A DNA stretch of 64,000 bases, taken from positions 5,988 to 69,987 of the forward strand of contig DATCFY010000058.1 in assembly GCA_036509255.1 (NCBI GenBank), written 5' to 3'. Each line of letters starts with the position of its first letter. Within the stretch, counting starts at the first letter, position 1. Under the pieces are notes generated by a model. The model did no database searches. It was not told the DNA's origin and saw nothing but the letters and a program-made list of their open reading frames with translations. Below, piece after piece: positions 9,969-44,900 of the stretch. Source of the stretch: Streptosporangiaceae bacterium. GTDB taxonomy: Bacteria; Actinomycetota; Actinomycetes; Streptosporangiales; Streptosporangiaceae. Position numbers and translations under genes: made by a program.

Positions 9969-10475
9969 GCGTTTCCCCTCCGCTCAACGCAGGTGCCTGG
10001 ACGCGCCGCCCTTAGAGCGGGATGCGCAGCGGTAGCGACCGCGATTTCCCGCAACCTAGCAGGTCAGCGCCCCGTGCCAGGTTCCAAGTTGATCACGCAC
10101 AGTAACGCAGCGCAAGGATAATGCAGGTAAAATCACCGGGGAGTTTGATCGCATTCGGTGCACATTAACTAATACCCGGCCAGCTTATGCTGCGGCGGCG
10201 GTCAAAGCCGGGCCACTTCCAGACCTCAGGCCCCCGCAGGCGCCTTTACGTAAAGCGTCATGCCGACAGGAACCAAAACGTCCCGCGGGATCGTAAGCAG
10301 GCATCCGGCGGCGGCAATTCTCGCGTCTGGCGGGCGGCAATCGCGCGCCTATCCCGGATCGCCGCGGAAGGGCCCGGCCACTCAGCGCCCCGGTCCCGGT
10401 CTTCATGTTTCGCCCCCTCAGCTGAGGTAGGGTTTCGTGAAGTAGGGCTGACGCACCGTCGGCAGGGAGGTCGCG

Positions 10476-10532
10476 ATGGCGGCACGGGTCTGCGCGCTGT
10501 GGGGCATCGTCGTCGAGGTGAGCCGGCTCTGA
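10476..10532 (+). CDS. Candidate 18-codon upstream ORF coupled to the XRE-ImmA gene
   Basis: Translates as MAARVCALWGIVVEVSRL. Strong GGGAGG RBS 5 nt upstream and high GC3. Its TGA overlaps the downstream ATG (TGATG). Confidence 0.3.
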   Translation: MAARVCALWGIVVEVSRL

Positions 10533-11647
10533 TGCCGCGCGGACAGGCGGCGGTCCTGACCCCGTCCCGGCTGGTGATCGCCCGGAAGCGGCGCGGCCTC
10601 ACCCTGACCCAGCTGGCCGGGCTGACCGGCCTGAGCACGCGCAGCATTTCCCTGTACGAGAACGGCCACCAGGAGCCGTCCGCGGACACGCTGCGGGAGC
10701 TGGCCGGAGCGCTCGACGTGTCCCCCGCCTTCCTGGGCGCACCCGACGTCGGCGAGATCCAGCCGGCCGCGGTGAGCTTCCGGGCGCTGAGCAAGATGAC
10801 CGCCCGGCAGCGGGACCGGGCGCTGAGCGCGGGCCGGGTCGCGTTGCTGATCAACGACTGGATCGACACCAGGTTCCGGCTCCCGGAGACCGACATCCCG
10901 GGCCTCACCGGCGACGATCCCGAGGCGGCCGCCGAGGTGGTCCGGGCCCGCTGGGGCCTGGGTGAGCGCCCGGTCAGCAACGTGCTCCACCTGCTGGAGT
11001 CCCGGGGGGCCCGGATCTTCTCGCTGACCCCGGAGAACACCGAGCTCGACGCCTACTCGCTGTACTGGCAGGGACAGCCGTTCATCTTCCTCGCCACCGG
11101 CAAGAGTGGCGAGCGGGGCCGCTTTGACGCCGCCCACGAGCTCGGCCACCTCGTCCTGCACGGCGAGCACCAGACGCCCGGCCGCCCGGCCGCCGAGGTT
11201 GAGGCCAACCGCTTCGCTGCCGCGTTCCTGATGCCCCGGGCCAGCGTGCTGGCCGAGGGCCTGCGCGACGCCACCCCGGCCCGGATCCTGGGCGCCAAGC
11301 GGACCTGGAAAGTGTCGGCCATGGCGCTCACCCACCGGCTGCACGAGCTGGACCTGCTGACCGACTGGGGCTACCGGACCGCGTGCGCGCAGCTCTCCCG
11401 GCTCGGCTACCGCTACAGCGAGCCGCAGGGCATCGAGCGCGAATCCTCGCAGCTGCTGGCCAAGGTGTTCCGGGCCGTCCGGGACGGCGGGGAGACTCCC
11501 GCCACGATCGCTGCCTCGATCGGGATCAGCACGAACGAGCTTCAGTCGCACGTGTTCGGCCTCACGCTGACCGCGGTGCCGGGCGACGGCCAGGCCGTGG
11601 GGACCCCGGCCCGGCACGGTCTGCGCCTGGTCCCGCCCCCCGGCTGA
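10532..11647 (+). CDS. XRE-family HTH fused to an ImmA/IrrE (M78, DUF955) metallopeptidase domain
   Basis: N-terminal HTH (RRGLTLTQLAGLTGLSTRSISLYENG) and HEXXH (AAHELGHLVLH) with downstream EANRFAAAFLMP. The ORF opens at 10187, but ATG 10532 begins the HTH. Confidence 0.8.
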   Translation: MPRGQAAVLTPSRLVIARKRRGLTLTQLAGLTGLSTRSISLYENGHQEPSADTLRELAGALDVSPAFLGAPDVGEIQPAAVSFRALSKMTARQRDRALSAGRVALLINDWIDTRFRLPETDIPGLTGDDPEAAAEVVRARWGLGERPVSNVLHLLESRGARIFSLTPENTELDAYSLYWQGQPFIFLATGKSGERGRFDAAHELGHLVLHGEHQTPGRPAAEVEANRFAAAFLMPRASVLAEGLRDATPARILGAKRTWKVSAMALTHRLHELDLLTDWGYRTACAQLSRLGYRYSEPQGIERESSQLLAKVFRAVRDGGETPATIAASIGISTNELQSHVFGLTLTAVPGDGQAVGTPARHGLRLVPPPG

Positions 11648-11718
11648 AACCCCGTCCGCGGGCTGAAATCCCGTCCCCGGGCTGAAATCCCGTCCCCGGG
11701 CTGAACCCGCGTGCCCCG
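11642..11718. repeat. Four tandem copies of a 19-20 nt unit GGCTGAAAYCCCGTCCSCG
   Basis: Read directly at 11642-11660, 11661-11679, 11680-11698 and 11699-11718 (last copy degenerate). The first unit contains the XRE-ImmA stop codon. Confidence 0.8.
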
Positions 11719-13436: not shown

Positions 13437-14888
13437 TCAGCGAGTCCCCGCGCAGTCCTCCTCGTCACAAGGCCGCACGATGGGGCCGACCCCCGCGATC
13501 GCCCGCGCCTGGGCCCGGGCCAGCAGGACCGCGGCCGCCTGCACCGCGTTCTCCCCCGTGCGGGACATCCGGCTGGCGATCAGCCCGGTCACGATCGGGG
13601 TCGAGAACGACGTGCCGCTGCACCGGGCCATCCCGTGGAAATGGCGTTGCCCGTGCCCATCCGGCGGGACGTAGCAGTGGTAGGTCCCGGTGGCCCAGGC
13701 GTTGACCAGTCCGCGGCCGCGCGCGTACACGTCCACCCAGCTGCCGTAGTTGCTGAAGCTGGCCCGGGTGCGCCCGTCCGCCGCCAGCGCCCCCACCGCG
13801 ATCATGCCGTCGAACGCCGCGGGCCAGAATCGGCGGCGGGAGCTGTTGTTCCCGGCGGCCACCACGCACGCGACACCCTTGTGCTGGCGGAGCCGACGCC
13901 GCCACGCGTCGAACGCCGTAAGCGGGAGGAGCTTGCGCGTCGGGGACGCGATGGTCAGGTTGAACAGGTCGTATCCCTGGTCCAGGGCCGAGTCCAGCTT
14001 GGGCACCGCGTCCGCCTCCAGCGCGCTGCCCGCGATGTTGAACACGTTCGCGCAGTAGAGCTCGACCGCGGGCGCCATGCACCGGAGCACCCCGGCGACG
14101 AACGTGCCGTGCCCGACGTACGGGACGATCACCTCCGGGTCGCTTCCGGGCGGCACGAGGCCCGGGTCCGGGTCCGGGTCGCCCTGCACGCCGGCCAGCC
14201 AGGCGTGCGCGTCGGCCGCGCCGGCCACCAGCCCGGTGTCGGCCACGAAGACCCGGACTCCCCCGCCGTGATTTCCCGGGCAGGGCCCGGGCTCCGGCTC
14301 GGTGCCGTAGGGGACCTCCTCCGGCTCCGTGGCCATGCAGGGCACGACCGGGGACACGGTCACGACGTGATTCGGGGTCGCGACGCCGGCGCCCAGCTGC
14401 CGGTCGATCTCGCCCAGGGCCAGGAGCACGCCGGACGGGGCTTGCTCGTCCCCGGGCTCGGTGTCATCGTCCCGGCGGTCGTCGTCCTGGTAACGGCTGC
14501 CGGCCAGCGCGAGCGCCACCACCCCCTGGGTGACGCGCCGCAGTTGCGGGAGCCAGGGGGGCGGTTCCCCGGATTCCCCGGCTCCCTCCGGCTCAGGTCC
14601 GGGCGCGGCGTCCGGCCCGGCTTCCGGCACGGGGCGCTCCGGCGGGAACCGGCCTTCCGGGTACACCGGGGGCAGGATTTCCGCCCTCGGCCGCGCCACG
14701 ATCACCAGCACCCGGTCCAGATCCTCGTCCCGGACGAGGAGGACGCCTTTCTGGTACATGAACGCGATTCCGCCATCCAGGTCGGGTTCCGTTTTCACGT
14801 GTATTCCGGCCCGGCGGAACGCATGTTTTATCACACTGGCCTCGGCTATCGCGGTGGGATCGAGCCTGGGCCTGCCTGCGTCGGCCAT
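13437..14888 (-). CDS. Cytoplasmic S8-family (subtilisin-like) serine peptidase with an N-terminal region of about 190 aa of unknown function
   Basis: Catalytic triad motifs VFVADTG (Asp), HGTFVAG (His) and CSGTSFSTP (Ser). No signal peptide. ATG 14888 is preceded by AGGAGG. The ORF track extends to 14975. Confidence 0.85.
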   Translation of the reverse strand: MADAGRPRLDPTAIAEASVIKHAFRRAGIHVKTEPDLDGGIAFMYQKGVLLVRDEDLDRVLVIVARPRAEILPPVYPEGRFPPERPVPEAGPDAAPGPEPEGAGESGEPPPWLPQLRRVTQGVVALALAGSRYQDDDRRDDDTEPGDEQAPSGVLLALGEIDRQLGAGVATPNHVVTVSPVVPCMATEPEEVPYGTEPEPGPCPGNHGGGVRVFVADTGLVAGAADAHAWLAGVQGDPDPDPGLVPPGSDPEVIVPYVGHGTFVAGVLRCMAPAVELYCANVFNIAGSALEADAVPKLDSALDQGYDLFNLTIASPTRKLLPLTAFDAWRRRLRQHKGVACVVAAGNNSSRRRFWPAAFDGMIAVGALAADGRTRASFSNYGSWVDVYARGRGLVNAWATGTYHCYVPPDGHGQRHFHGMARCSGTSFSTPIVTGLIASRMSRTGENAVQAAAVLLARAQARAIAGVGPIVRPCDEEDCAGTR

Positions 14889-14952
14889 GGTGTGCCTCCT
14901 ATGCTCCGTAAAGCCATAGACGTCGGAATGGCACCGATCTAGCATCGGCGCT

Positions 14953-17628
14953 GTGGGGGGCAAAAGCCAGGTCATTACCCCGGCTGCGGCCGGCGTGCCG
15001 GAATTGCTGACCTTCGCCGCGTCCCGGCCACGGGAAGGGCTGGCCCGGGCCCGCGCGATACTCGCGGGCCGGCCGACGCCGCTGGAGGCGTCCGTCGCGC
15101 ACCACGCCGCCGGGTTCGTGCTGCGTGAGTTCGGCGACCTCGGCGCGGCCCTCCGCGAACTGCGGGCCGCGCTGCGCGCGGCACGGCAGGCCGGGTCCCC
15201 TTCCCGCGAGGCGGATGTGCTGGCCTCGCTCGGCGTCGCGCTGGTCTACGCGGGCCGGACCAGTGCCGGGCTGGCCGCGCTCGACCAGGCGGGACGGCAG
15301 GCCAGTGGTAACCAGGCGGCCCGCATCCTGCATCGCCGGGCCATCGTGCTGTGGACCCTGGGCCGCTACCCCGAGGCGCTCGGCGACCTGCACCGGGCGG
15401 TGGCCACGCTGCGCCGGGACGGGGACATCATCTGGGCCGGGCGCGCGCTCACCGCCCGGGCGCTGGTCTACCTGGCCCAGGGGCGCACCCGGCAGGCGGC
15501 GCGGGATCTGGCTGCGGCCGAGCGGCTGTTCGCCGGGACCGGCCAGGAGCTCGAATCCGCCTACCTGGTGCACAACCGGGGCATCGTCGCGTTCCGCACC
15601 GGGGACCTCCCGATGGCGCTGAGCTGCCTGGATGAGGCGGCCCGGCGGTATTCGTCGCTGGACGTGCCGCCGCCGGACCTCAGCCTCGACCGGTGCGCGG
15701 TGCTGCTCGCGGCGGGCCTGCCCGGCGACGCGCTGACCCGGGCGGAACAGGCCATCGGCGAGTTCGAGCGGATCCGCGGCCAGTCCACCAAGAAGGCGGA
15801 GCTGCTGCTGGCCGCGGCCAGCGCCGCGCTCGCGGCGGACCAGCCGCCGGTGGCCCTGGCCCGCGCCCAGGCGGCCCGGCGCCTGTTCCGGGCCCAGCAC
15901 CGGGACCGGTGGGCGGCGCACGCCGGGTTCCTGGTGCTCAGCGCCCGCTTCGCCCAGGGCGAGGGTTCCGCGCCGCTGCTCCGGGCGGCGGGCCAGCTGG
16001 CCGGCGACCTCGACCGGCTGGGCTCGGCAGAGGCACCGCAGGCGCACCTGCTGGCCGGGCGGATCGCACTGCGGCTCGGCCGGCCGGACGAGTCCCGCCG
16101 TCATCTCGCGGCGGCCGCCCGCAGCCGCTTCCGCGGGCCGGCCTACTCCCGGGCGGCCGGCTGGCTGGCCGAGGCCCTGCTGGCGGAGGTGGCCGCCAAT
16201 CCGCGCCGCCTGCTGCACGCCTGCCGCCGCGGGCTGGACGTGCTGGACGGGCACCGGCTCACGCTGGGCGCCTCTGAGCTGCGGGCCCAGGCCACGGCAG
16301 CTGGCGCCGAGCTGGCGGAGCTGGCGCTGCGCCAGGCGCTCCGCTCGGGCCGACCCCGGCCCCTGCTGTGCTGGAGCGAGCGATGGCGGGCCACTGCGCT
16401 GGCCGTGCCCACGGTGCGGCCCGGCGACGACCGGGAACTGGCCGCCGATCTGTCCGCCGCCCGGGATGCCGCCAGCCGCGTGGCCCAGGCCGAGGCCCGC
16501 GGCCGCCCCGTGGCCGCACTGCGCCAGCAGCAGCGGGCGCTGGAAGACGCGGTCCGGGCTCGGGTGATGCGCGCCCCGGGGTCCGCCGGCACCGGCGGCG
16601 GCCGGGAGCTCGATCCCGGCGTCCTGCTGGCCGCGCTGGACGGAACGCAGCTGGTGCAGATCGTCAGCATCGGCGCCGAGCTGCACGTCCTGGTCTGCGG
16701 CGGAGGCCGGGTCCGGCACGTCGCGGCAGGCCAGGCGGATCAGGCCATCCGGGCGACCGAGCTGGCCCGGTTCGGCCTGCGCCGGCTGGCCCATAGCCGG
16801 CCGGCCCGCGACCCGCCCGGGAGCCCGCGGGAGGGCCCGCCGGACAGCACCGGCAGCGCGTTCGCGCTCCTGGATGTGACGGGACGCCAGCTGGAGCGGA
16901 CGCTGCTCGGCGACGCGGTCCGCCACCTCGGCGACGGGCCCGTGGTCATCGTCCCGCCGGGCCGGTTCCACGCGATTCCCTGGGCCCTGCTGCCGTCGCT
17001 GCGGGACCGGGTGGTCAGCGTGGCCCCGTCGGCCCGGGCCTGGCTGCGGGCCCGGGCGGCCACGCCGCCGGCCCGGCGGCACGCGGTCCTGGCCCGCGGC
17101 CCGGGCCTGGGCACCGGGGGCGCCGAGGTCCCGGCCCTGGCGCCGCTGTACGACGACGTCACCGTCCTGGGTGACGGGGCCGCCACGAGCGGGCGCCTGC
17201 TGGAGGCCATCGACGGCGCCTGGCTGGCGCACATCGCGGCGCACGGCACGTTCCGGGCCGACAGCCCGCTGTTCTCCTCGCTGCGGATGGCCGACGGCCC
17301 GCTCACGGTCTACGACTTCGAGCGGCTGCGCCGCGCGCCGCACCTCGTGATCCTGCCCTGCTGCGACTCGGGCCGGCTCGCCCCGGCCGGCGCGGACGAA
17401 CTCCTCGGCCTGGTCAGCAGCCTCCTGCCGCTGGGCACGGCCGGGGTGGTCGCCAGTGTCGCGCCGCTCAATGACCAAGCGGCGGTCCCGCTGATGCTGG
17501 CGCTGCATCAGCGGCTGCGCTCCGGCCAGACGCTCGCCGGGAGCCTGTGCGCGATCAGGCGTCAGGTCAGGAATGATCCGGTCCTCCTCGGCGCGGCCTG
17601 GTCCTTGGTGGCGCTCGGCGCGGGCTAG
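14953..17628 (+). CDS. TPR-repeat / CHAT-domain (caspase-like) protease
   Basis: About 600 aa of TPR-like helical repeats, then a CHAT core with HIAAHG (His codon 17242-17244) and LVILPCCDSG (Cys codons 17359-17364). No signal peptide. Confidence 0.85.
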   Translation: MGGKSQVITPAAAGVPELLTFAASRPREGLARARAILAGRPTPLEASVAHHAAGFVLREFGDLGAALRELRAALRAARQAGSPSREADVLASLGVALVYAGRTSAGLAALDQAGRQASGNQAARILHRRAIVLWTLGRYPEALGDLHRAVATLRRDGDIIWAGRALTARALVYLAQGRTRQAARDLAAAERLFAGTGQELESAYLVHNRGIVAFRTGDLPMALSCLDEAARRYSSLDVPPPDLSLDRCAVLLAAGLPGDALTRAEQAIGEFERIRGQSTKKAELLLAAASAALAADQPPVALARAQAARRLFRAQHRDRWAAHAGFLVLSARFAQGEGSAPLLRAAGQLAGDLDRLGSAEAPQAHLLAGRIALRLGRPDESRRHLAAAARSRFRGPAYSRAAGWLAEALLAEVAANPRRLLHACRRGLDVLDGHRLTLGASELRAQATAAGAELAELALRQALRSGRPRPLLCWSERWRATALAVPTVRPGDDRELAADLSAARDAASRVAQAEARGRPVAALRQQQRALEDAVRARVMRAPGSAGTGGGRELDPGVLLAALDGTQLVQIVSIGAELHVLVCGGGRVRHVAAGQADQAIRATELARFGLRRLAHSRPARDPPGSPREGPPDSTGSAFALLDVTGRQLERTLLGDAVRHLGDGPVVIVPPGRFHAIPWALLPSLRDRVVSVAPSARAWLRARAATPPARRHAVLARGPGLGTGGAEVPALAPLYDDVTVLGDGAATSGRLLEAIDGAWLAHIAAHGTFRADSPLFSSLRMADGPLTVYDFERLRRAPHLVILPCCDSGRLAPAGADELLGLVSSLLPLGTAGVVASVAPLNDQAAVPLMLALHQRLRSGQTLAGSLCAIRRQVRNDPVLLGAAWSLVALGAG

Positions 17629-18027
17629 CAGGGTGCGGGCCTTGCCGGCCCGGGCCGGCTGCGCCGTCTCGGCGAGCACAGCCGGCCGGGGCCGTCCCCC
17701 GCTCCCGCTTCCCCTGGCCCGGTTGGCGGGCTTCCTGACTGGACGGAGCGTCCCGGGGCCCGCCTGATACGGCTGCAGCGGAACCGGTCCCGGAAAACTT
17801 GCGCCGCGCGGGTGGTATCACGCCCGGCCTGGCGGCCTCCGTCTCAGCGAAGCGTGCAGTCGAGCCAGGCGGGCGGAGCGTGGCGGCGGTCTCCGGCCGC
17901 CGCGCCGCCAGAGGGTCAGGTGCCGATGGGGATAGCGTCCGGACCGGGCCGTACCCGTACAATGCAGGGCATTCACGGGCCTCCCGCGGCGCTGCGGCGG
18001 CCCGCGCGGCGAGAGGACGGGCCCGCG

Positions 18028-18645
18028 ATGCGCGATGACTCGCCGGTCGCCGTGCTGGTGGCCCGGGCCCGGGACGGTGACAAGCAGGCCTGGGACGCGA
18101 TCGTGGACCGGTACGCGCCGCTGATCTGGTCGATCTGCCGCCGGTACCGGCTGGACCGGGCCGACGCGGACGACGTGGGGCAGAGCGTCTGGCTCCGGCT
18201 GGTGGACCAGTTAGCGCTGATCCGCGAGCCTGCGGCGCTGCCGGGCTGGCTGGCCACGACCACCCGCCGGGAGTGCGGCCGGGTGCTCAGCGCGGCCCGC
18301 CGGCAGGAGGCGCTGGGCGATGCGGTGGACGCCGCGGACGTCCCGGACGGTGAGCCGGCGGCGGCGGAACGCGAGGTGCTCGCCGCCGAACGGCACGCGG
18401 CGCTCCGGGAGGCCTTCACCCACCTGCCGCCGCGCTGCCAGGAGCTGGTCGGCCTGCTCCTGGAGGATCCGCCCGTCCCCTACGCTGACATCAGTGCCAA
18501 GCTGGGCATCCCGGTCGGCAGCATCGGCCCGAGCCGGGCCCGCTGCCTGGACCGTCTCCGCCGGTATCCGGCGGTCGCCGCCCTGATCAGCAACGAAATC
18601 CCGGCCGGAGGTGACCCCAGTGACGAGCCAGCAGTGGGCCGATGA
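18028..18645 (+). CDS. ECF-type sigma-70 family RNA polymerase sigma factor
   Basis: Region 2 (DAIVDRYAPLIWSICRRY...DADDVGQSVWLRL) and region 4 (LPPRCQELVGLLLEDPPVPYADISAKLGIPVGSIGPSRARCLDRLR). The ORF opens at 17812, and ATG 18028 is preferred. Confidence 0.8.
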   Translation: MRDDSPVAVLVARARDGDKQAWDAIVDRYAPLIWSICRRYRLDRADADDVGQSVWLRLVDQLALIREPAALPGWLATTTRRECGRVLSAARRQEALGDAVDAADVPDGEPAAAEREVLAAERHAALREAFTHLPPRCQELVGLLLEDPPVPYADISAKLGIPVGSIGPSRARCLDRLRRYPAVAALISNEIPAGGDPSDEPAVGR

Positions 18646-19081
18646 TCGCCTGATGGCGGAGCTGGGTGAGGCTGTCCGCGCCGCGCGGGCCGTTCCGCCC
18701 GAGTTCACCGAGACGGGCAAGGCCGCGTATACCTGGCGCAACGTCGACGCTGAACTGGCTGCCCTGACGTTCGACTCAGCCGCCCAGGCGGCGGCCGTGC
18801 CGGCCGTCCGGGCGGAGGAAGCCAGCCCGCGGTTCCTGACGTTCGCGGGGTCGGAGCTCACGATCGAGCTGGAGATCGGCCCGGACTCGATCGTGGGCCA
18901 GATCGTCCCGCCGGCGCCCGGGCACGTGGACGCCTGCCCGGCCACCGGGGCGGCCGCGACCGCGGAGATCGACGAGATCGGCTGCTTCATCATCCGGCCG
19001 CTGCCGTCCTCGCCCTTCCGGCTGCACTGCCACACCACGGCCGGCGTCAGCGTCCTGACCACCTGGATCACATTGCAGTAG
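18620..19081 (+). CDS. Hypothetical protein overlapping the sigma gene's 3' end (candidate sigma partner or anti-sigma-like)
   Basis: GGAGG lies 8 nt before GTG 18620 (alternative GTG at 18611). It overlaps the sigma stop by 26 nt. No ZAS HxxxCxxC motif and no TM helix. High GC3. Confidence 0.55.
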   Translation: MTSQQWADDRLMAELGEAVRAARAVPPEFTETGKAAYTWRNVDAELAALTFDSAAQAAAVPAVRAEEASPRFLTFAGSELTIELEIGPDSIVGQIVPPAPGHVDACPATGAAATAEIDEIGCFIIRPLPSSPFRLHCHTTAGVSVLTTWITLQ

Positions 19082-19206: not shown

Positions 19207-19635
19207 TCACAGCAGGATGAAGGGATCGCTCTGCTTGATCGAGACGATCTGGCCGTTGCCGGTGAAGAGCGCCGCCGTGTACTGGCACACGTGGCCTTTG
19301 ACGCCAGCGGGCGGTGTCACCGTCTCCGAATGGTTGAATGTGTTGTACAGCGGCGACGGCGACTTCCAGTTGGCCGCGCTGCCGAACGTGTCGGTGCTCG
19401 CGTTGAGCACGCCGCCGGGCTTGAGCGACGCCGGGGCGGGCCCGCTAGCCGTCACGTCGGTGCAGGTGGTGTGCAGGGTGTAGGCACCGGTCAGCCCGGC
19501 ACCGGCCACCATCTCAAGAGTGACGTCGAACGCCCCCCCACCGGGAGCGTTCGGCGCGTCATCCGCGATGTCAGAGACCGCGCCCGCGGCGTTCACGTAG
19601 AGGCTGGTGATCTTGGCGTCGTTGAAGTTTGGCAT
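19207..19635 (-). CDS. Hypothetical 142-aa protein, beta-rich, no signal peptide
   Basis: The internal ATG of the 254-aa ORF gives MPNFNDAKITSLYVNAAG...SIKQSDPFILL. High GC3 begins only from this ATG. Hairpins flank it on both sides. Confidence 0.6.
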   Translation of the reverse strand: MPNFNDAKITSLYVNAAGAVSDIADDAPNAPGGGAFDVTLEMVAGAGLTGAYTLHTTCTDVTASGPAPASLKPGGVLNASTDTFGSAANWKSPSPLYNTFNHSETVTPPAGVKGHVCQYTAALFTGNGQIVSIKQSDPFILL

Positions 19636-19665
19636 GGTGCAATTCGCCCCCTGGCAGAAATGCAG

Positions 19666-19702
19666 GGCCGCCGGTCGCGGCGGCCGGGAGGCCTTTCCTC
19701 CC
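19666..19702 (-). terminator. Two adjacent hairpins after the DMFase-like gene
   Basis: GGCCGCCG-N4-CGGCGGCC (19666-19685) and GGGAGG-N5-CCTCCC (19686-19702). Confidence 0.4.
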
Positions 19703-19757
19703 ACCCGTGCAGAGCGCGGCGGGGCCGGTGAGATACAGCTCTGACCGGGCCACGTGC

Positions 19758-21380
19758 TTACAGCACCACTGGCGGCCAGAGGTTGTGCTGGGCGGCGATC
19801 GGATCGCCCGGCCATTCGTGCATCGAGTCGAGGTTGTCGTGCGCGGGGAATTTCGCCGCGGCCGGGCCCTCGGCGAACCCGCGCAGCAGGTTGGTGGTCA
19901 CCTGCCGGGTGAACTCGCCCGCGTGCTTGTTCAGGCCGAACAGGCGCAGCCCGTTGCTGGCCGCCACCCACCGCATGGTGCCGGCGTTGAACACTCCCGC
20001 CCCGCCGCGGTGCGTGCAGTAGGCGGAGTCCGAGTAGCTGTTCACGCCGCGGCAGTTCAGCGGCGAGTGCGAGAGCACCTCCATCGGCCGCTCGACCGGG
20101 TAGACCGGGTTCACCCGGTCGTACTCGATGCCGACCAGCCCGGTGAACTTGGCGCCCTTGCGGACCCCAGTGTGCGCGTAGATCCAGCTGTCCGGCGAGG
20201 CGACGACGTAGTCGGCGGTCACCGGGTTCGACTCGTACAGCGTCCCGGTCAGCGACGACTCCGGGTCCGGGCTGGGCGGCTCCCGCCAGTCGCTGGTCAC
20301 CAGGGCGTTGTTCTTGCCGTACATCGGGTCCTGCAGGTAGCTCGTCTTGTAGCAGATGACCAGCCGCCCGGCCCCCAGCCGCGTACTGGCCATCCGGGTC
20401 CGCCGGAACAGCGTGTTCGCGCCCATGAAGGCGATGTTCATCCCCGCGTTCCGGGCCGCGGTGACGTGCGCGCGTTCCTGCGGGGTCCAGTACTCGTCGT
20501 GGCCCGGGGTGAACAGCGCATGGGCCCCATCCAGCAGGTGCGGGTCGCCGTCGATGTCCATGCTGGTCACGTAGGCCAGCGGCAGGCCGGTCCGCTCAGC
20601 CAGCTCGATGGTCTTCCGCTCGTGGTACAGGAACATGTAGGCGCCGTTAGCGTCGTACGGCCGGTCCAGGCTTACCGCGAGGGACCGGTTGGCGTAATCC
20701 CCGACACCGTTAGGACCGTTATAGAGGTCGTAGCCACCCCAGGTGTTGTAGGCCTGCCAGGTTTCCACGCCGTTCTTGATCACGATCTTGCCGGAGGTGC
20801 TGGCCGACCGGACGGTGACGGGCACGAACCGCTGGGCGCCGTTCTCCGCGTCCAGCCGGAACAGGTACGAGCCCTCCGGCCAGTCGTGCGTCGGCACGGT
20901 CAGGGATGGTTCCCACCTGGCTTCCACCGTGTTGGTCGGCCTGATCAGGTCCGGCTGGCGCTGCCGGTGCCCCTTCACCGTGGCCGACTTCCACAGCCGC
21001 CGCGCCTCGTCCCCGTGGTACCAGCCCATCCGGAACGCGCTGACCCGGAAGGAGCGGGCCGTGGTGGATACGTACAAGGTGATCGGCTCGCCGGGCAGCA
21101 CGCTGGCCTGGCCCGCGTAGCCCACGATGGCGTCCGGGGCGCCGAGATGCCGGATGTTCCAGTGCGGGTCGCCCGGGAGATCGTTCTCGCTGACCGGGCC
21201 CCGTGCCTTCGCGCGCACAGCCTGCTCGTGGGCCTGGCCGGTGCTCCCGCTGCGGCCCACGGACCGGGCCGCCGCGCTGCACGCGGCGGCGCCCGCGGCG
21301 GTGGCCGCGGCCGCGATCCCGAAGAACGCCCGGCGCGAATAGCGCGCGTAGTGAGAGGGCCATCCCATGCGGTCCATCAT
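19758..21380 (-). CDS. Tat-secreted protein resembling the N,N-dimethylformamidase large-subunit-like family
   Basis: Twin-arginine signal (YSRRAFFGIAAAATAAGAAAC). Motifs ETWQAYNTWGGYDLY and TPGHDEYWT are recalled from that family. Only the 3' 541 codons of the 1161-aa ORF are coding. Start is ATG 21380. Confidence 0.65.
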   Translation of the reverse strand: MMDRMGWPSHYARYSRRAFFGIAAAATAAGAAACSAAARSVGRSGSTGQAHEQAVRAKARGPVSENDLPGDPHWNIRHLGAPDAIVGYAGQASVLPGEPITLYVSTTARSFRVSAFRMGWYHGDEARRLWKSATVKGHRQRQPDLIRPTNTVEARWEPSLTVPTHDWPEGSYLFRLDAENGAQRFVPVTVRSASTSGKIVIKNGVETWQAYNTWGGYDLYNGPNGVGDYANRSLAVSLDRPYDANGAYMFLYHERKTIELAERTGLPLAYVTSMDIDGDPHLLDGAHALFTPGHDEYWTPQERAHVTAARNAGMNIAFMGANTLFRRTRMASTRLGAGRLVICYKTSYLQDPMYGKNNALVTSDWREPPSPDPESSLTGTLYESNPVTADYVVASPDSWIYAHTGVRKGAKFTGLVGIEYDRVNPVYPVERPMEVLSHSPLNCRGVNSYSDSAYCTHRGGAGVFNAGTMRWVAASNGLRLFGLNKHAGEFTRQVTTNLLRGFAEGPAAAKFPAHDNLDSMHEWPGDPIAAQHNLWPPVVL

Positions 21381-21539
21381 GAACCCGCGGCCGGAGTGAT
21401 ACCGGCAGCCGGGCCGACACGCACGAGCCGGATGACTTTTCTTGACCATTCCGATACCGGGCTGGCCACGGCACCCCGGCCCGCGCCGGGTGCCGTGAAT
21501 CGGTACTGACCACACGTCCGGGGATGCCACAATCCGGAC

Positions 21540-23201
21540 ATGCTTCCAGGCGCTACCGACTCGGCTGACGATCCCCTCGAACAGGATGCTCCGGACCATC
21601 CGGTCGACGACCCGGCCATCGCGGCGTGGTTCCTGGGCGATGGCGACCGGGCTAACCCCGCGACTGACCTGCGGACCTTCACGATCGGGAACCTGGTCCA
21701 GCCGCTCGTGGACGGGCGCAGCTACTTCGCCCGGCTGAACGCTGAACTGAACGCCACTGAGCCAGGTGACCAGGTCTACTTCCTGGACTTCCGCGGCGAC
21801 CTGGATGAACTGCTCGATGGTCCCGGCTCGGCGGTCGGCGACGTGCTCGGCCGTGCCGCCCGCCGCGGGGTCAAGGTCTTCGGCCTGCTCTGGCGCTCCC
21901 AGCCCAAAGCGCTGCGCCAGTCCGAGGAGGCCAACGCGGAGTTCGTCCGCCAGATTGACGACGACGGCGGCCAGGTCCTGCTCGACGCGCGGACCCGCCG
22001 GGGCGGCAGCCATCACCAGAAGCTGGTGGTGATCCGCCACCCGGGCGCCCCCGGCCGCGACGTCGCGTTCGTGGGCGGGATCGACCTGGGGCACGGCCGC
22101 AACGACGACTCCCGGCACGAGGGCGACGCGCAGGTGATGGATTTCCCGGCCAGCTACGGGCCGCGGCCACCCTGGCATGACATCCAGGCCGAGGTGCGCG
22201 GGGCCGCCGTGCATGACCTGGAGCACACCTTCCGGGAACGCTGGTACGGCAGCAGTGTCCTGGACGTGCCCAGCCCGGTCCGCCAGCTCTACGACCGGGC
22301 GTACCACATGGGCGCGACGACCAGCCGCCCGCTGCCCGAGCCGGTACCGGACGAGAGCATGCCGCGCGGCACGCACGCGGTGCAGGTGCTGCGCACCTAC
22401 CCGGCCCGGCTCCGCCGTTACCCGTTCGCGCCGCTCGGCGAGCGGAGCATCGCGCACGCGTACCGGAAGGCGTTCGAGCGGGCCCGCTGCCTGGTCTACC
22501 TGGAGGACCAGTACTTCTGGTCGCGGCCGGTGGCCAACCTCATCGCGTCGGCCCTGCGCACCCATCCTGGCCTGCACGTCCTCGCGGTCGTGCCGCGATA
22601 CCCGGACAACGACGGCCCGGTCACCCGGATGCCCGGCCTGCTCGCCCGGCACGATGTCGTCCGCGCCTGCACCGCCGCGGGAGGTGACCGGTTCGCGATC
22701 TACGACCTGGAGAACCACCAGGGCAACCCGGTCTACGTGCACGCCAAGATCGTGGTCGTGGACGACGTCTGGGCGATGGTCGGGTCGGACAACCTGAACC
22801 GGCGGTCCTGGAGCCACGACAGCGAGCTGTCCATCGGCGTGCTGGACGCGGAACCGGATCCCCGGGAGCCCCGTGACCCGGCCGGGCTGGGCGACGGGGC
22901 CCGGGTGTTCGCCCGCGACCTGCGTCTCCGGCTCTGCGGCGAGCACCTGGACCGGGATCCCGATGATGTGGCCGACCTGCTGAGCCCGGTGGACATGTTC
23001 GCGGCGTTCCGCAGGCAGGCCGGGCAGCTGGCGGCCTGGCACGACGGGGGCGGCACAGGAGAGCGCCCGCCCGGGCGGGTACTGCCGCACCGGCCCTACC
23101 GGCCGACGGTCACCCAGCGGTGGTGGGCCGCTCCGCTGTACCGCCTGGTGTACGACCCGGACGGCCGGCCGCTGCGCGACCGGCTGCGCGGGCGCCTGTG
23201 A
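21540..23201 (+). CDS. Phospholipase D-family protein (two HKD motifs)
   Basis: HHQKLVVI...GGIDL and VHAKIVVVDDVWAMVGSDNLNRRS. No signal peptide. Confidence 0.85.
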   Translation: MLPGATDSADDPLEQDAPDHPVDDPAIAAWFLGDGDRANPATDLRTFTIGNLVQPLVDGRSYFARLNAELNATEPGDQVYFLDFRGDLDELLDGPGSAVGDVLGRAARRGVKVFGLLWRSQPKALRQSEEANAEFVRQIDDDGGQVLLDARTRRGGSHHQKLVVIRHPGAPGRDVAFVGGIDLGHGRNDDSRHEGDAQVMDFPASYGPRPPWHDIQAEVRGAAVHDLEHTFRERWYGSSVLDVPSPVRQLYDRAYHMGATTSRPLPEPVPDESMPRGTHAVQVLRTYPARLRRYPFAPLGERSIAHAYRKAFERARCLVYLEDQYFWSRPVANLIASALRTHPGLHVLAVVPRYPDNDGPVTRMPGLLARHDVVRACTAAGGDRFAIYDLENHQGNPVYVHAKIVVVDDVWAMVGSDNLNRRSWSHDSELSIGVLDAEPDPREPRDPAGLGDGARVFARDLRLRLCGEHLDRDPDDVADLLSPVDMFAAFRRQAGQLAAWHDGGGTGERPPGRVLPHRPYRPTVTQRWWAAPLYRLVYDPDGRPLRDRLRGRL

Positions 23202-41909: not shown

Positions 41910-41973
41910 GCCACTCTGGGCCGCGGTCCGGCTAGCGGTCGGCCACTCTGGGCCGCGTTCCGGCTAGCGGTCG
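41910..41973. repeat. 32-bp tandem duplication (1 mismatch) spanning the LuxR stop codon
   Basis: GCCACTCTGGGCCGCGGTCCGGCTAGCGGTCG at 41910-41941 repeats at 41942-41973. Confidence 0.8.
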
Positions 41974-44900
41974 GCCGGGGCCAGCCCGGCGGCCGCGGCC
42001 ATGGCCGCGGCCTCGCCCCGGCTGGACGCGCCCAGCTTGCCGAGGATGTTGGACACGTGCACGCTGGCTGTCTTGGGCGCGATGAACAGCGCGGCGGCGA
42101 TCTCCCGGTTGCTGCGCCCGGCCACCAGCAGCCGCAGCACCTCGCGTTCCCGGCCGGTCAGCCCGGCCAGGACGTCGGCCGGACCGCCGCCCGCTCCCGT
42201 TTCGCGCTGACCGCTCCCCGGCTGGCCAGTCCCGCCCGCGCCGTTGCTGGCTGGCCGGGCGAGCCGGGCCCGCCGCCCGAGATCGCGGAGCGCGGACGCC
42301 AGCGGTGCCGCGCCCAGCTGGTCCGCCACGGCCATCGCGAGCGACCACTCCCGCTCTGCCTCGGGCCGCCGTCCTGCCCCGGCCAGCGCCTCCGCGAGCC
42401 GCCAGCGGGACCGGGCCGTCTCGTAGCTGAACGCCGGGCCGAACTCGGTGACCACCGCCTCCCAGGCCTGCGGTTCGTTACGGCCCTGGACGCGGGCCCA
42501 TTCCGCCTCTGCCCGGGCCAGCCAGCCGCGGCCGTCCACGCCCAGCACGAACTTAGGCCTGCGCGGGAAGGCCGCGCCTTCCCGCGCAGCATCGATGAGC
42601 ACCCGGGCCGCCGCTTCCTCGGCCTCGGCGGCCTCGTTGTCCCCGGCGGCCCTGGCCTGCCGGGCCTGCTCGCCGCGGGCGGCCAGGCCCACGGCCGCCA
42701 CCCGGATCGCGGGTGGCCCGTAACTGCCGTCCACATCCAGCTCAGCCAGGGTGGCGGCCACCTCGGCCAGGGTGGTCGCCGTGTCGCCGCGCCACAGGGC
42801 GTGCTCGGCCAGCAGGCCGCGGGCAATGTAGGCGCCGAAGCTGTCGCCCGGCCAGAACGGTTCCAGCCAGGCCCGGCGCTCCGCGACCTTCGGGCTGCCC
42901 CGGGCCACGTCCAGGAACAGGGCCATCGCCGAGAGCCGGGCCTCGGCCACCGTGGTCACCCGGACTCCGAAGCTGTCCGCCAGCTCCTGCGCGTGCTCCC
43001 AGCAGCCGTCCGCGTAGTGCGCCAGGTAGTGCAGGTACTGCAGGTCGAGCCCGTAGGGGGCCAGGCCCAGACCGGCCGCCTCCGCCCGGCCCTGGCCCTG
43101 GTGCGCGGTTTCGGCCGCCCCGGCCAGGTCACCGCTCTCCAGCTGGGACCGGGCCATCTGGAAAGCCGCCCGGAGCTCGATCCCGAGCATGGAATGAGCC
43201 TGGGCTTCCCGGTAGGCCTGGGTGAACAGGTCGAGGGCCGTCGCGGGCTCGCCCTGGCGCTCGGCCAGCAGGCCCAGGGTCACCAGCGCGTCCGCCTCCA
43301 CCCAGGGGGCGGCCGCGGCCCGGGCCGCCGTCCGGGCCTGCTGCGCCCGGCGTTCGGCCGCCTCCTCGTCGCCGGTGTACATCAGCGTCTGGGCGTGGGT
43401 GGCCAGGGCCCGGGCACGTTCCGGGCGCGGCGGGTCGGCCGGGAGCAGCTGCACCGCCGCCCGCCCGGCCGCCTCCGCGTCGCCGGCCGCTTCGAGTTCG
43501 AGCAGGTAGTAGGCGAGGCGTTCGTGCACCCGGCTGGCCAGTACCGGGTCGGTATCCTCACGCAGGAAACCCCGGATGCGGCGCAGCTGCTGCACGGCGC
43601 GGGCGATTTCGCCGCTGGACGCGGCACAGTTCGCGGAGCAGAAGCCCAGGTGATTGCGGTCCTGCCCGGCCAGCCGCTCCGGCTCGCTGACCCGCTCCCA
43701 CAGTGCGAGCGCGGCGTCGTAGTGCCGGTGCGCCTCGGCCGGGGCGGCCAGCCGCTCGGACTCCCGCCCGGCCTGCACCGACGCGGCGAAGGCTCCCGCG
43801 ATGTCGTGGCTGGCCAGGCAGTGGTGGGCCAGCTCCGCGGCGGACCCCGGCACGGCGGCGAGCCGGCCCGGGTCGGCCAGCAGCTCGGCGAACCGGGCGT
43901 GCAGCCGGGTCCGCTCCCCCGGAAGCAGGTCGGTGTAGAGCGCCTCCCGGATCAGGGCGTGCCGGAACATGTAGCCATCCGCGCCGCCCGGGACCAGCAG
44001 CTGCTGGGCCACGCACTCCCGGATCGCGTCCTCATACTCCGGCTCGGCCAGCCCGGACGCGGCCCGGACGATGTCGTCCTCGACCCGGCGGCCGCCAACC
44101 GCGGCGGCCCGGAGCACCTGCTGGGCCGGGCCGGGCAGCCGCTCCACCCGGGCCAGCAGCAGCGCGGCCAGCCCGCTGGGCAGCACGTCCCCGCCCAGGG
44201 CTCCCCCGCCGCCCGCTGGCCCGCCGCCGCGGGGCCGCCCCGGCACCACGGCGGCCAGCAGTTCCTCCGCGTAGTAGGGGTTGCCCTCGGCCCGGGCCAC
44301 CATCCGGTGCAGGATGGCCGGATCCAGCGGGCCCTCGGCCAGCGCGGTCAGGTGATCGGCCATGTCCGCGTAGTCCAGCGGCCCCAGCTCGATCGAGGCC
44401 ACGCTGGGCAGCCGCAGCAGCTCCGCCACCACCGGCCGGAGCGGGTGACGGCGGTGCAGGTCGTCGGTGCGGTAGGTGGCCACCACGGCGACCCGCTCCC
44501 GGTGCAGCACCCGGCTCAGGAAGGTGATCAGGTCGCGGGTGGACCGGTCGGCCCAGTGGAGGTCCTCGAGAATCAGCAGCACCGGATGCCCGTCGGCCAG
44601 CTCGGCGAGCAGCCCGAGGACCGCACCGAACAGCTGCTGCTGGGCGAGGACCGAGACCTCCCCGCCCGGCGGCGCCACCACGTCCCGGTCCGGCAGCAGA
44701 CGGCCCAGGACCGGGCGGGCGGCGAGTGCGGCCGCGAGCGGTTCCGTTGCGGCGCCTGCAGTAGTCGTGCCTTCCCGCAGCGCGTCGGCGAGCGGCAGGT
44801 AAGGAATGCTGTCGCCCAGTTCCGCGCACCGCCCGGACAGAACCAGGAAGCCGCGGCCCGCGGCCCGGGTCGCGAGCTCGGCGACCAGCCGGGTCTTCCC

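Follow-up and report, generated by a model that had tools for sequence, protein, structure and literature searches.

What does a pair of cytoplasmic proteases do beside an alternative sigma factor? The question is raised by a contig of a Streptosporangiaceae bacterium (DATCFY010000058.1, assembly GCA_036509255.1), of which we analysed a stretch of 64,000 nucleotides, hereafter called the window. A subtilase of peptidase family S8 and a caspase-like protease that joins a tetratricopeptide repeat (TPR) array to a CHAT domain are encoded there divergently, next to a sigma factor of the extracytoplasmic function (ECF) type and a small protein that we call the partner. The four genes very likely form one functional module, which we assign by its gene context to the ECF54 type. 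We give about an even chance to the proposal that this module, taken as a whole chain of events, is a self-contained cytoplasmic switch in which proteolysis gates the alternative sigma factor.

The window is actinomycete-type DNA with a GC content of 67-78%. Gene models were taken from homology together with frame statistics; simple gene calling by GC content at third codon positions (GC3) picked antisense open reading frames (ORFs) at the sigma-partner locus. Codon-position GC backs all four reading frames (GC3 0.90-0.93), and the genes outlined in a preliminary description of this DNA, made from the sequence alone, are real (Table 1). What that description reported as missing is missing in our scans too. 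None of the four proteins has a segment hydrophobic enough for a signal peptide or membrane helix. The 64-kb window contains neither a tandem array of the kind seen in clustered regularly interspaced short palindromic repeats (CRISPR) nor a match to any Rfam family, and no cas gene was found among the flanking genes scanned or in the gene tables of related contigs. A gasdermin gene is likewise absent from the flanking genes scanned and from Pfam-annotated related contigs, so that gene content excludes a gasdermin link. The 64-bp region between the two protease genes, also described before, would lengthen to as much as 106 bp if CHAT began at an alternative GTG at 14995. The CHAT, sigma and partner genes had been presented as one run. 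They share a strand, but CHAT and sigma need not form one operon because a gap of about 400 bp with promoter-like motifs separates them.

Table 1. Features of the protease-sigma module and its surroundings in the 64-kb window (aa, amino acids; PWM, position weight matrix).
Feature	Position	Strand	Remarks
Cytoplasmic S8 subtilase, 483 aa	13437-14888	-	Pfam PF00082 (Peptidase_S8), E 1e-18
TPR-CHAT caspase-like protease, 891 aa	14953-17628	+	Pfam CHAT, E 2e-24; TPR_12, E 2e-12
ECF sigma factor, 205 aa	18028-18645	+	Sigma70_r2, E 6e-11; TIGR02937, E 6e-19; GC3 0.90
Partner, 153 aa	18620-19081	+	Overlaps the sigma stop codon by 26 nt; GC3 0.92
Divergent S8/CHAT spacer	14889-14952		Without sigma-type promoter motif; end at 14994 should the second GTG be the CHAT start
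Predicted autoregulatory promoter (ECF type) for the sigma-partner operon, GGTATCA-N16-CTCCGTCTCAG	17811-17851	+	PWM 29 bits
Second motif copy, 106 nt past the CHAT stop, antisense into CHAT	17734-17774	-	PWM 18.6 bits
Third and weakest motif copy, upstream of the small minus-strand gene	19700-19740	-	PWM 16.6 bits
Small gene, about 113 aa, MPNFNDAKITSLYVNAAG...	19207-19548	-	No Pfam match; third motif copy upstream
TAT-signal lipoprotein, DMFA2_C family	19758-21380	-	PF20254, E 1e-98
PLD-like gene	21540-23201	+	Divergent from the DMFA2_C gene
XRE-HTH and M78 peptidase gene (RmrA-like)	10187-11647	+	PADLOC RmrA model (Rosmer defence system), E 8e-142

Linkage was counted in a partner-anchored set of 79 genomic loci with 10-kb flanks (cited below by their L numbers), mostly from metagenome-assembled genomes (MAGs) of uncultured Streptosporangiaceae or Actinomycetes and one from Kribbella sancticallisti. 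The sigma gene lies directly upstream of the partner gene in 77 of the 79 loci, and its stop codon overlaps the partner start in at least 64 of 76, the pattern expected for a sigma factor and its stoichiometric binder. For the proteases we counted only those 57 loci whose flanks reach 5.5 kb or more in each direction. Of these, 48 carry CHAT as well as S8, eight carry neither, and one keeps a CHAT remnant. All three S8-anchored contigs carry CHAT, the sigma factor and a Pfam-less protein of 153-156 aa amid unrelated housekeeping genes. The four genes thus clearly co-occur beyond chance, as the preliminary description had presupposed. Wherever they occur, CHAT and S8 are neighbours transcribed divergently, and this pair is found in four positions or orientations relative to sigma-partner. 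Two sub-units make up the whole, S8|CHAT and sigma-partner, and they stay linked through rearrangements. The closest loci belong to Streptosporangiaceae and Actinomycetes MAGs, plus Kribbella and Nonomuraea, all actinobacterial hosts.

The two sub-units have diverged to different degrees. When the window is compared with its nearest loci (L002-L018), sigma and partner are 82-93% identical, CHAT about 60% and S8 47-60%. For sigma and partner, identity to the window is correlated with a Spearman coefficient of 0.64; with the proteases the values are 0.14-0.31, and with S8 0.14-0.18. Because the identity of CHAT and S8 is far below that of sigma and partner, the protease pair appears either to evolve much faster or to be exchanged as a cassette between paralogous modules.

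The combination has already been published as the gene context of ECF54 (PMC8999054, PMC7826278). Section 3.3 of PMC8999054, which draws on Huang et al. 2015 as well as Casas-Pastor et al. 2021, proposes proteolytic control for ECF54 on account of the carboxypeptidase, subtilase and CHAT domain proteins that its context conserves. ECF54 is actinobacterial and without a clear regulator (Casas-Pastor et al. 2021, PMC7826278); no anti-sigma factor is recognisable in it (PMC8999054, PMC7826278), and a '4Fe-4S' protein is mentioned for its context (PMC7826278). We found no experimental work on ECF54 in the literature searched, the original description by Huang et al. 2015 lying outside that search, and nothing on CHAT, subtilase and sigma factor together beyond the ECF54 sources. 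Our locus shares the features of this group: an actinobacterial host, an ECF sigma factor with regions 2 and 4 only, no canonical anti-sigma factor nearby, and a neighbourhood of subtilase, CHAT and a small β-sandwich protein of carboxypeptidase-regulatory-like type. The 'carboxypeptidase' protein of the ECF54 context is almost certainly the partner, because the β-sandwich of several partner-family members gives weak, sub-threshold matches to CarboxypepD_reg (E 0.005-0.09).

We then turn to the proteins. The sigma factor matches TIGR02937 (sigma70-ECF) over residues 93-251 of the long sigma ORF, and among solved structures SigE, SigH and RpoE come nearest to it (about E 1e-8). Its start is most likely the ATG at 18028; in-frame ATGs upstream, at 17926 and 17962, could extend the N-terminus in the sublineage of the window, and this extension is kept at the amino-acid level in L001. 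The small overlapping partner gene noticed in the preliminary description represents a real family, with 1343 homologues in 90% clusters and 2642 representatives at 50% identity. Nearly all of them stand alone, with a length of about 150 aa. In the AlphaFold model of the partner, two helices (residues 2-23 and 27-50) are followed by a disordered linker (about 50-68, predicted local distance difference test score below 50) and by a confidently modelled immunoglobulin (Ig)-like β-sandwich (70-150). The helical hairpin bears the most conserved motif of the family, W-DDD-LL-AL...VP..F...W..IDAELA.LTYDS. We propose that the partner acts as a soluble anti-sigma factor and as a protease substrate, by analogy with the systems compared below.

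The CHAT protein is composed of a helical/TPR array (about residues 1-640) and a CHAT domain (643-876). Pfam recognises TPR and CHAT only, with no fused zinc-binding anti-sigma domain or transmembrane helix, and the most hydrophobic stretch of the protein lies inside the CHAT core. The intact His/Cys dyad read from the sequence earlier, as expected of a caspase-like protease of clan CD, corresponds to H764 (HIAAHG) and C804 (CCDSG), and at least 97% of the 47 sequences compared keep these residues.

The S8 gene starts at the ATG at 14888, with a GGAGG ribosome-binding site 7 nt upstream. Among 36 aligned homologues, D217 (DTG), H260 (HGT), S427 (GTS) and the oxyanion N347 (AAGN) are invariant or nearly so, in agreement with the triad proposed before, and the order of these residues is that of subtilisin, as in peptidase family S8. 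The preliminary description left about 190 N-terminal residues uncharacterised. This part does contain an additional conserved region, and most of it can now be described: a conserved α/β region (about 10-65) is followed by a low-complexity P/E/G insert (about 65-112), a prodomain-like region (about 115-177) and an invariant PCPATEPxEV junction (about 183-192), after which the catalytic domain begins. In Foldseek, the AlphaFold model (predicted template-modelling score 0.86) matches subtilisins (E 1e-13) and aligns over the greatest length with the unprocessed pro-forms 3whi, 1r6v and 2zwo (pro-subtilisin E, fervidolysin and Pro-Tk-subtilisin). Because the N-terminus resembles a prodomain in these alignments, the model suggests an I9-like prodomain and hence an enzyme made as a zymogen. 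At the other end, many S8 homologues carry a Cys/His/Gly-rich tail resembling a metal-binding site (alignment columns 600-648), in place of which the S8 of the window has only PCDEEDCAGTR. This tail may relate to the '4Fe-4S' protein named for the ECF54 context in PMC7826278.

Upstream of the sigma genes stands a strongly conserved motif of ECF type, (T/G)GTATCA-N16/17-CTC(C/T)G, after which TCTCAGTGAA or TTAGAAA frequently comes. A PWM built from sigma-upstream sites was scanned over 2.77 Mb with a threshold of 16 bits and gave 129 matches in real DNA versus a single one in shuffled DNA. Sixty-two matches lie upstream of sigma, 27 within the CHAT|S8 spacer and upstream of S8, 14 just past the CHAT stop codon and directed antisense into CHAT, and 25 elsewhere; at this threshold none is found upstream of CHAT. 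The window has only three matches of at least 8 bits in 64 kb, all within 2 kb of sigma. We regard the motif as a predicted promoter.

In loci arranged as CHAT(-) S8(+) sigma partner, the motif precedes S8, and for this reason S8, sigma and partner probably form one autoregulated operon. S8 heads such an operon in about 11 loci and in Nonomuraea gerenzanensis (L085; NZ_LT559118.1, 7901888-7918343), where the motif lies 44 nt upstream of S8. A second motif of L085 lies 42 nt upstream of a gene of the animal-haem-peroxidase family (1282-3030 of L085, minus strand). The L085 record itself is an 11.85-Mb chromosome filed as a plasmid and nearly unannotated. The other genes preceded by the motif differ by lineage, including an APH-like kinase operon, an S53 peptidase and a GNAT gene, and have no common theme. 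In one orthologous group (L038, L046, L053, L062 and L073, at about 3.4-5.2 kb in each), the motif stands before an operon encoding an APH-like kinase, a HAD hydrolase and a large STAND/TPR regulator, which adjoins an imuA-imuB-dnaE2-like mutagenesis cassette.

The antisense copy is present in the window and in L002-L005, L007, L011, L013, L014, L017, L018, L033, L046 and L053, 10-165 nt past the CHAT stop and in two gene arrangements. L006, which has lost CHAT and S8, retains a motif copy of this type. We searched the interval separating the motif from the end of CHAT for a small RNA or a short ORF; an antisense promoter fits better than a separate gene because the motif of L011 and L014 sits only 10-23 nt from the stop codon. 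This copy could provide a sigma-driven shut-off of the CHAT sensor.

Several genomes possess two or three separate copies of the module (MFD02416.bin.2.242, MFD05841.bin.1.161, SMAG_U15271 and MGr2D2E2F__bin_108), and tandem duplicates of sigma-partner or of the whole module exist in L029, L049 and L053. The same promoter motif is found at all copies within multi-copy genomes, so cross-activation between copies is possible.

Several known systems couple proteases of this kind to sigma factors. In Craspase, Cas7-11 with the TPR-CHAT protease Csx29 cuts Csx30 and thereby releases an RpoE-like sigma factor (PMC10028731). Our module resembles it in having a cytosolic TPR-CHAT protease, an ECF sigma factor and a small soluble partner, and release by a single cut is the likely logic here too. 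However, there is no Cas7-11, CRISPR RNA or array, the partner is unrelated to Csx30 and Csx31, S8 is added, and the trigger would be something other than a target RNA; the comparison is better read as analogy than as homology. In the CalpL-CalpT-CalpS system the sigma factor is freed by cleavage of the soluble anti-sigma factor CalpT, and a SAVED-CHAT protease acts on PCaspase in a cascade of a hybrid between type III-B CRISPR and the cyclic-oligonucleotide-based anti-phage signalling system (CBASS) (bioRxiv 10.1101/2023.06.23.546230). These systems also have protease genes adjoining a sigma factor and a small protein, and here too one protease may activate the other. In contrast, the proposed sensor of our module is a TPR array and not a SAVED domain that binds cyclic oligoadenylates, the second protease is a serine subtilase and not a caspase, and neither a cyclase nor CRISPR is present. 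Finally, the DdvA-DdvS pair of Myxococcus xanthus comprises a transmembrane anti-sigma factor with a periplasmic TPR-CHAT part, and CHAT-mediated cleavage is proposed as the trigger (PMC11506125). TPR-CHAT is tied to ECF sigma control in both cases. DdvA is a single membrane protein, in which a zinc-binding anti-sigma domain is fused to a TPR-CHAT part with an incomplete active site. Our CHAT, unlike DdvA, stands as a cytoplasmic protein of its own whose dyad is intact, and the sigma factor's partner is separate, small and soluble.

Starting from the observed gene linkage, motif distribution, catalytic residues and domain anatomy of partner and S8, we propose the following chain, in which sigma-partner binding, the order of cleavage, the signal and the output are modelled on Craspase, CalpL/CalpT/CalpS, SAVED-CHAT and DdvA/DdvS. 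Sigma and partner would be made together by translational coupling, and the N-terminal hairpin of the partner, as a soluble and non-canonical anti-sigma factor, would sequester sigma. CHAT would be the sensor, present before activation because it lies outside the predicted regulon of sigma; a ligand or protein on its TPR array would turn on the His764/Cys804 site. Active CHAT would then cut the partner, most plausibly in the disordered linker between hairpin and β-sandwich, and set sigma free. Free sigma would read GTATCA-N16/17-CTCYG promoters at its own operon, giving positive feedback, and at the S8 gene in most relatives. It would also direct antisense transcription into the 3' end of CHAT, a possible shut-off, in a quarter to a third of those loci that have CHAT. 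Once mature, the S8 zymogen could serve as an amplifier or effector, degrading further partner molecules or other targets. A stand-alone proteolytic cascade releasing an ECF sigma factor had been offered in the preliminary description, and it remains the best reading for a conserved unit accompanied by neither CRISPR nor gasdermin; its supposed kinship with Craspase and the sensor role that it gave to S8 found little support, as described below.

Several observations weigh against this chain. The binding of partner to sigma is deduced by analogy, and no cleavage site can be named. No model of Pfam, NCBIfam or PADLOC matches the partner. The comparison with Csx30, Csx31 and anti-sigma domains that the preliminary description had suggested returned no relative, either with the partner profile or with the N-terminal hairpin alone against the PDB, and Foldseek gave the partner model generic Ig, fibronectin type III and expansin-type sandwiches only (best E 0.017). 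An apparent sigma-partner fusion (P0379, 350 aa, on a 1.2-kb contig) has an out-of-frame middle part rich in Arg, Pro and Ser and is a frameshift artefact, by which Rosetta-stone support was lost. Only form and position identify the motif as a promoter. On the S8 side of the divergent spacer of the window, the PWM scan found nothing of 3 bits or more, so this S8 has no sigma-type promoter and its branch may be wired differently here. Finally, eight loci have sigma-partner with neither protease nearby; therefore sigma-partner can exist alone or be served in trans.

Some of these points lead to other explanations. The proteases might act on sigma itself, by processing a pro-sigma or controlling its stability, with the partner as an accessory or target and not as an anti-sigma factor. 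Streptomyces sigma-BldN and Bacillus sigma-E and sigma-K are indeed made as pro-sigmas, and the ATGs at 17926 and 17962, with the extension kept in L001, lie downstream of the predicted promoter. The partner also matches no anti-sigma family, in line with the absence of a recognisable anti-sigma factor from ECF54 (PMC8999054, PMC7826278). However, most family members lack the extension and have the motif a mere 100 nt or so upstream of the MRDD start, and the near-universal gene overlap together with the tight co-evolution of sigma and partner, compared with that of the proteases, is typical of a cognate binder. We therefore consider direct processing of sigma somewhat unlikely. A different division of labour would make S8 the upstream sensor or initiator protease and CHAT the executioner, much as the preliminary description did by placing S8 where the RNA-guided sensor would be. 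The additional conserved N-terminal region of S8, whose role is unassigned, and the lack of a sigma-type promoter at the S8 of the window would agree with this order. Yet S8 lies behind the motif of sigma in 27 related loci, which argues that it is an output or amplifier, and CHAT never has the motif. Moreover, S8 heads the S8-sigma-partner operons described above, its N-terminus is prodomain-like rather than sensor-like, and in CHAT and separase-type proteases it is usually the TPR array that senses a ligand or protein (PMC11506125, PMC10028731). A sensor role for S8 is thus quite unlikely, and the role given to it earlier is probably to be reversed.

Whether the module is instead a weapon can be asked of the same data. 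Sigma-partner might be a local switch only, with the core being a two-protease anti-phage or cell-death effector in which CHAT activates the S8 zymogen and no partner is cleaved. Multiple and tandemly duplicated copies, varied genomic contexts, the faster divergence of CHAT and S8, a weak match of S8 to the PADLOC 'subtilase' model and the RmrA-like gene nearby would all fit, and the SAVED-CHAT to PCaspase cascade offers a precedent (bioRxiv 10.1101/2023.06.23.546230). Against this, no defence-system model of PADLOC matches CHAT, sigma or partner, neither a toxin nor any other effector that can be recognised recurs, housekeeping genes surround the module, and the fast divergence could equally reflect exchange between paralogues. 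Such an effector seems unlikely to us. The preliminary description equated the set with the output arm of type III-E CRISPR, and the locus could accordingly be a degenerate or CRISPR-detached descendant of a Craspase arm (Csx29, Csx30/31 and RpoE). The parts lists agree in outline, each with a TPR-CHAT protease (TPR before CHAT in both), an ECF sigma factor and a small sigma-linked protein, and the best PDB sequence matches of CHAT are Csx29 chains. These matches are non-significant (E 0.22) and cover residues 742-837, the active-site region only. In addition, the 153-aa partner has a generic β-sandwich without similarity to Csx30/31, the nearest solved relatives of sigma are ordinary, S8 is not part of type III-E, and the module is widespread in Actinomycetota, as the 2642 partner representatives indicate, with no cas gene in the gene tables examined. 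Descent from type III-E is highly improbable.

The protease-gated switch that we prefer would matter for several reasons. So far, the systems in which proteolysis in the cytosol has been demonstrated to release an ECF sigma factor are CRISPR-linked, namely Craspase and CalpL (PMC10028731; bioRxiv 10.1101/2023.06.23.546230). If our model is true, the module is a stand-alone version of this logic, supplemented by a second, sigma-induced protease. ECF54 spans several actinobacterial lineages, and its regulator was still described as unknown in sources from 2021-2022 (PMC7826278, PMC8999054). Those sources report the association alone. What is new here is the promoter motif with the placement of its copies, including the antisense copy and a regulon predicted to contain S8 and not CHAT, the models of partner and S8 with the S8 prodomain, and the discordant divergence that may reflect modular protease exchange. 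The proposal is directly testable, with defined parts and catalytic residues, a motif ready for reporters and cultured hosts, of which there are at least two, Nonomuraea gerenzanensis and Kribbella sancticallisti. A wider and speculative reading, which we also regard as unlikely, is that the module is a CRISPR-independent sensor family resembling innate immunity, in which fast-diversifying and exchangeable TPR-CHAT/S8 cassettes may each have their own trigger, such as a phage or stress protein, and would signal by way of their own sigma-partner pair to a single type of promoter. If so, multi-copy genomes would hold a receptor repertoire with a common promoter type, a sigma-induced subtilase effector and an antisense shut-off of the sensor.

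Around the module, the window contains SDR, HxlR, DMFA2_C, PLD and beta-lactamase-like genes, among others, by Pfam; the remaining genes scanned are ordinary metabolic or housekeeping genes. The small gene downstream of the partner is conserved only in the closest relatives (L005, L007, L017 and L033), and the third motif copy has a matching position in L005 and L033; the small gene is a candidate local regulon member. Beyond it, an ORF at 19629-21509 on the plus strand looked conserved in tblastn and was considered as a member of the module. We rejected it as an antisense frame (GC3 0.65 vs 0.95); the real gene on the opposite strand is that of the DMFA2_C lipoprotein. The pair of DMFA2_C and PLD-like genes accompanies the module only in the closest clade and is therefore treated as synteny. 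On the other side, an orthologue of the RmrA-like gene directly adjoins sigma in L001 and L006, where CHAT, S8 and two intervening genes are missing. The 3' end of the RmrA-like gene contains a 19-bp tandem repeat, TCCCGTCCCCGGGCTGAAA, with 3.9 copies and 89% matches (11631-11705), and a 32-bp repeat with 2.1 copies is located at 41910-41976.

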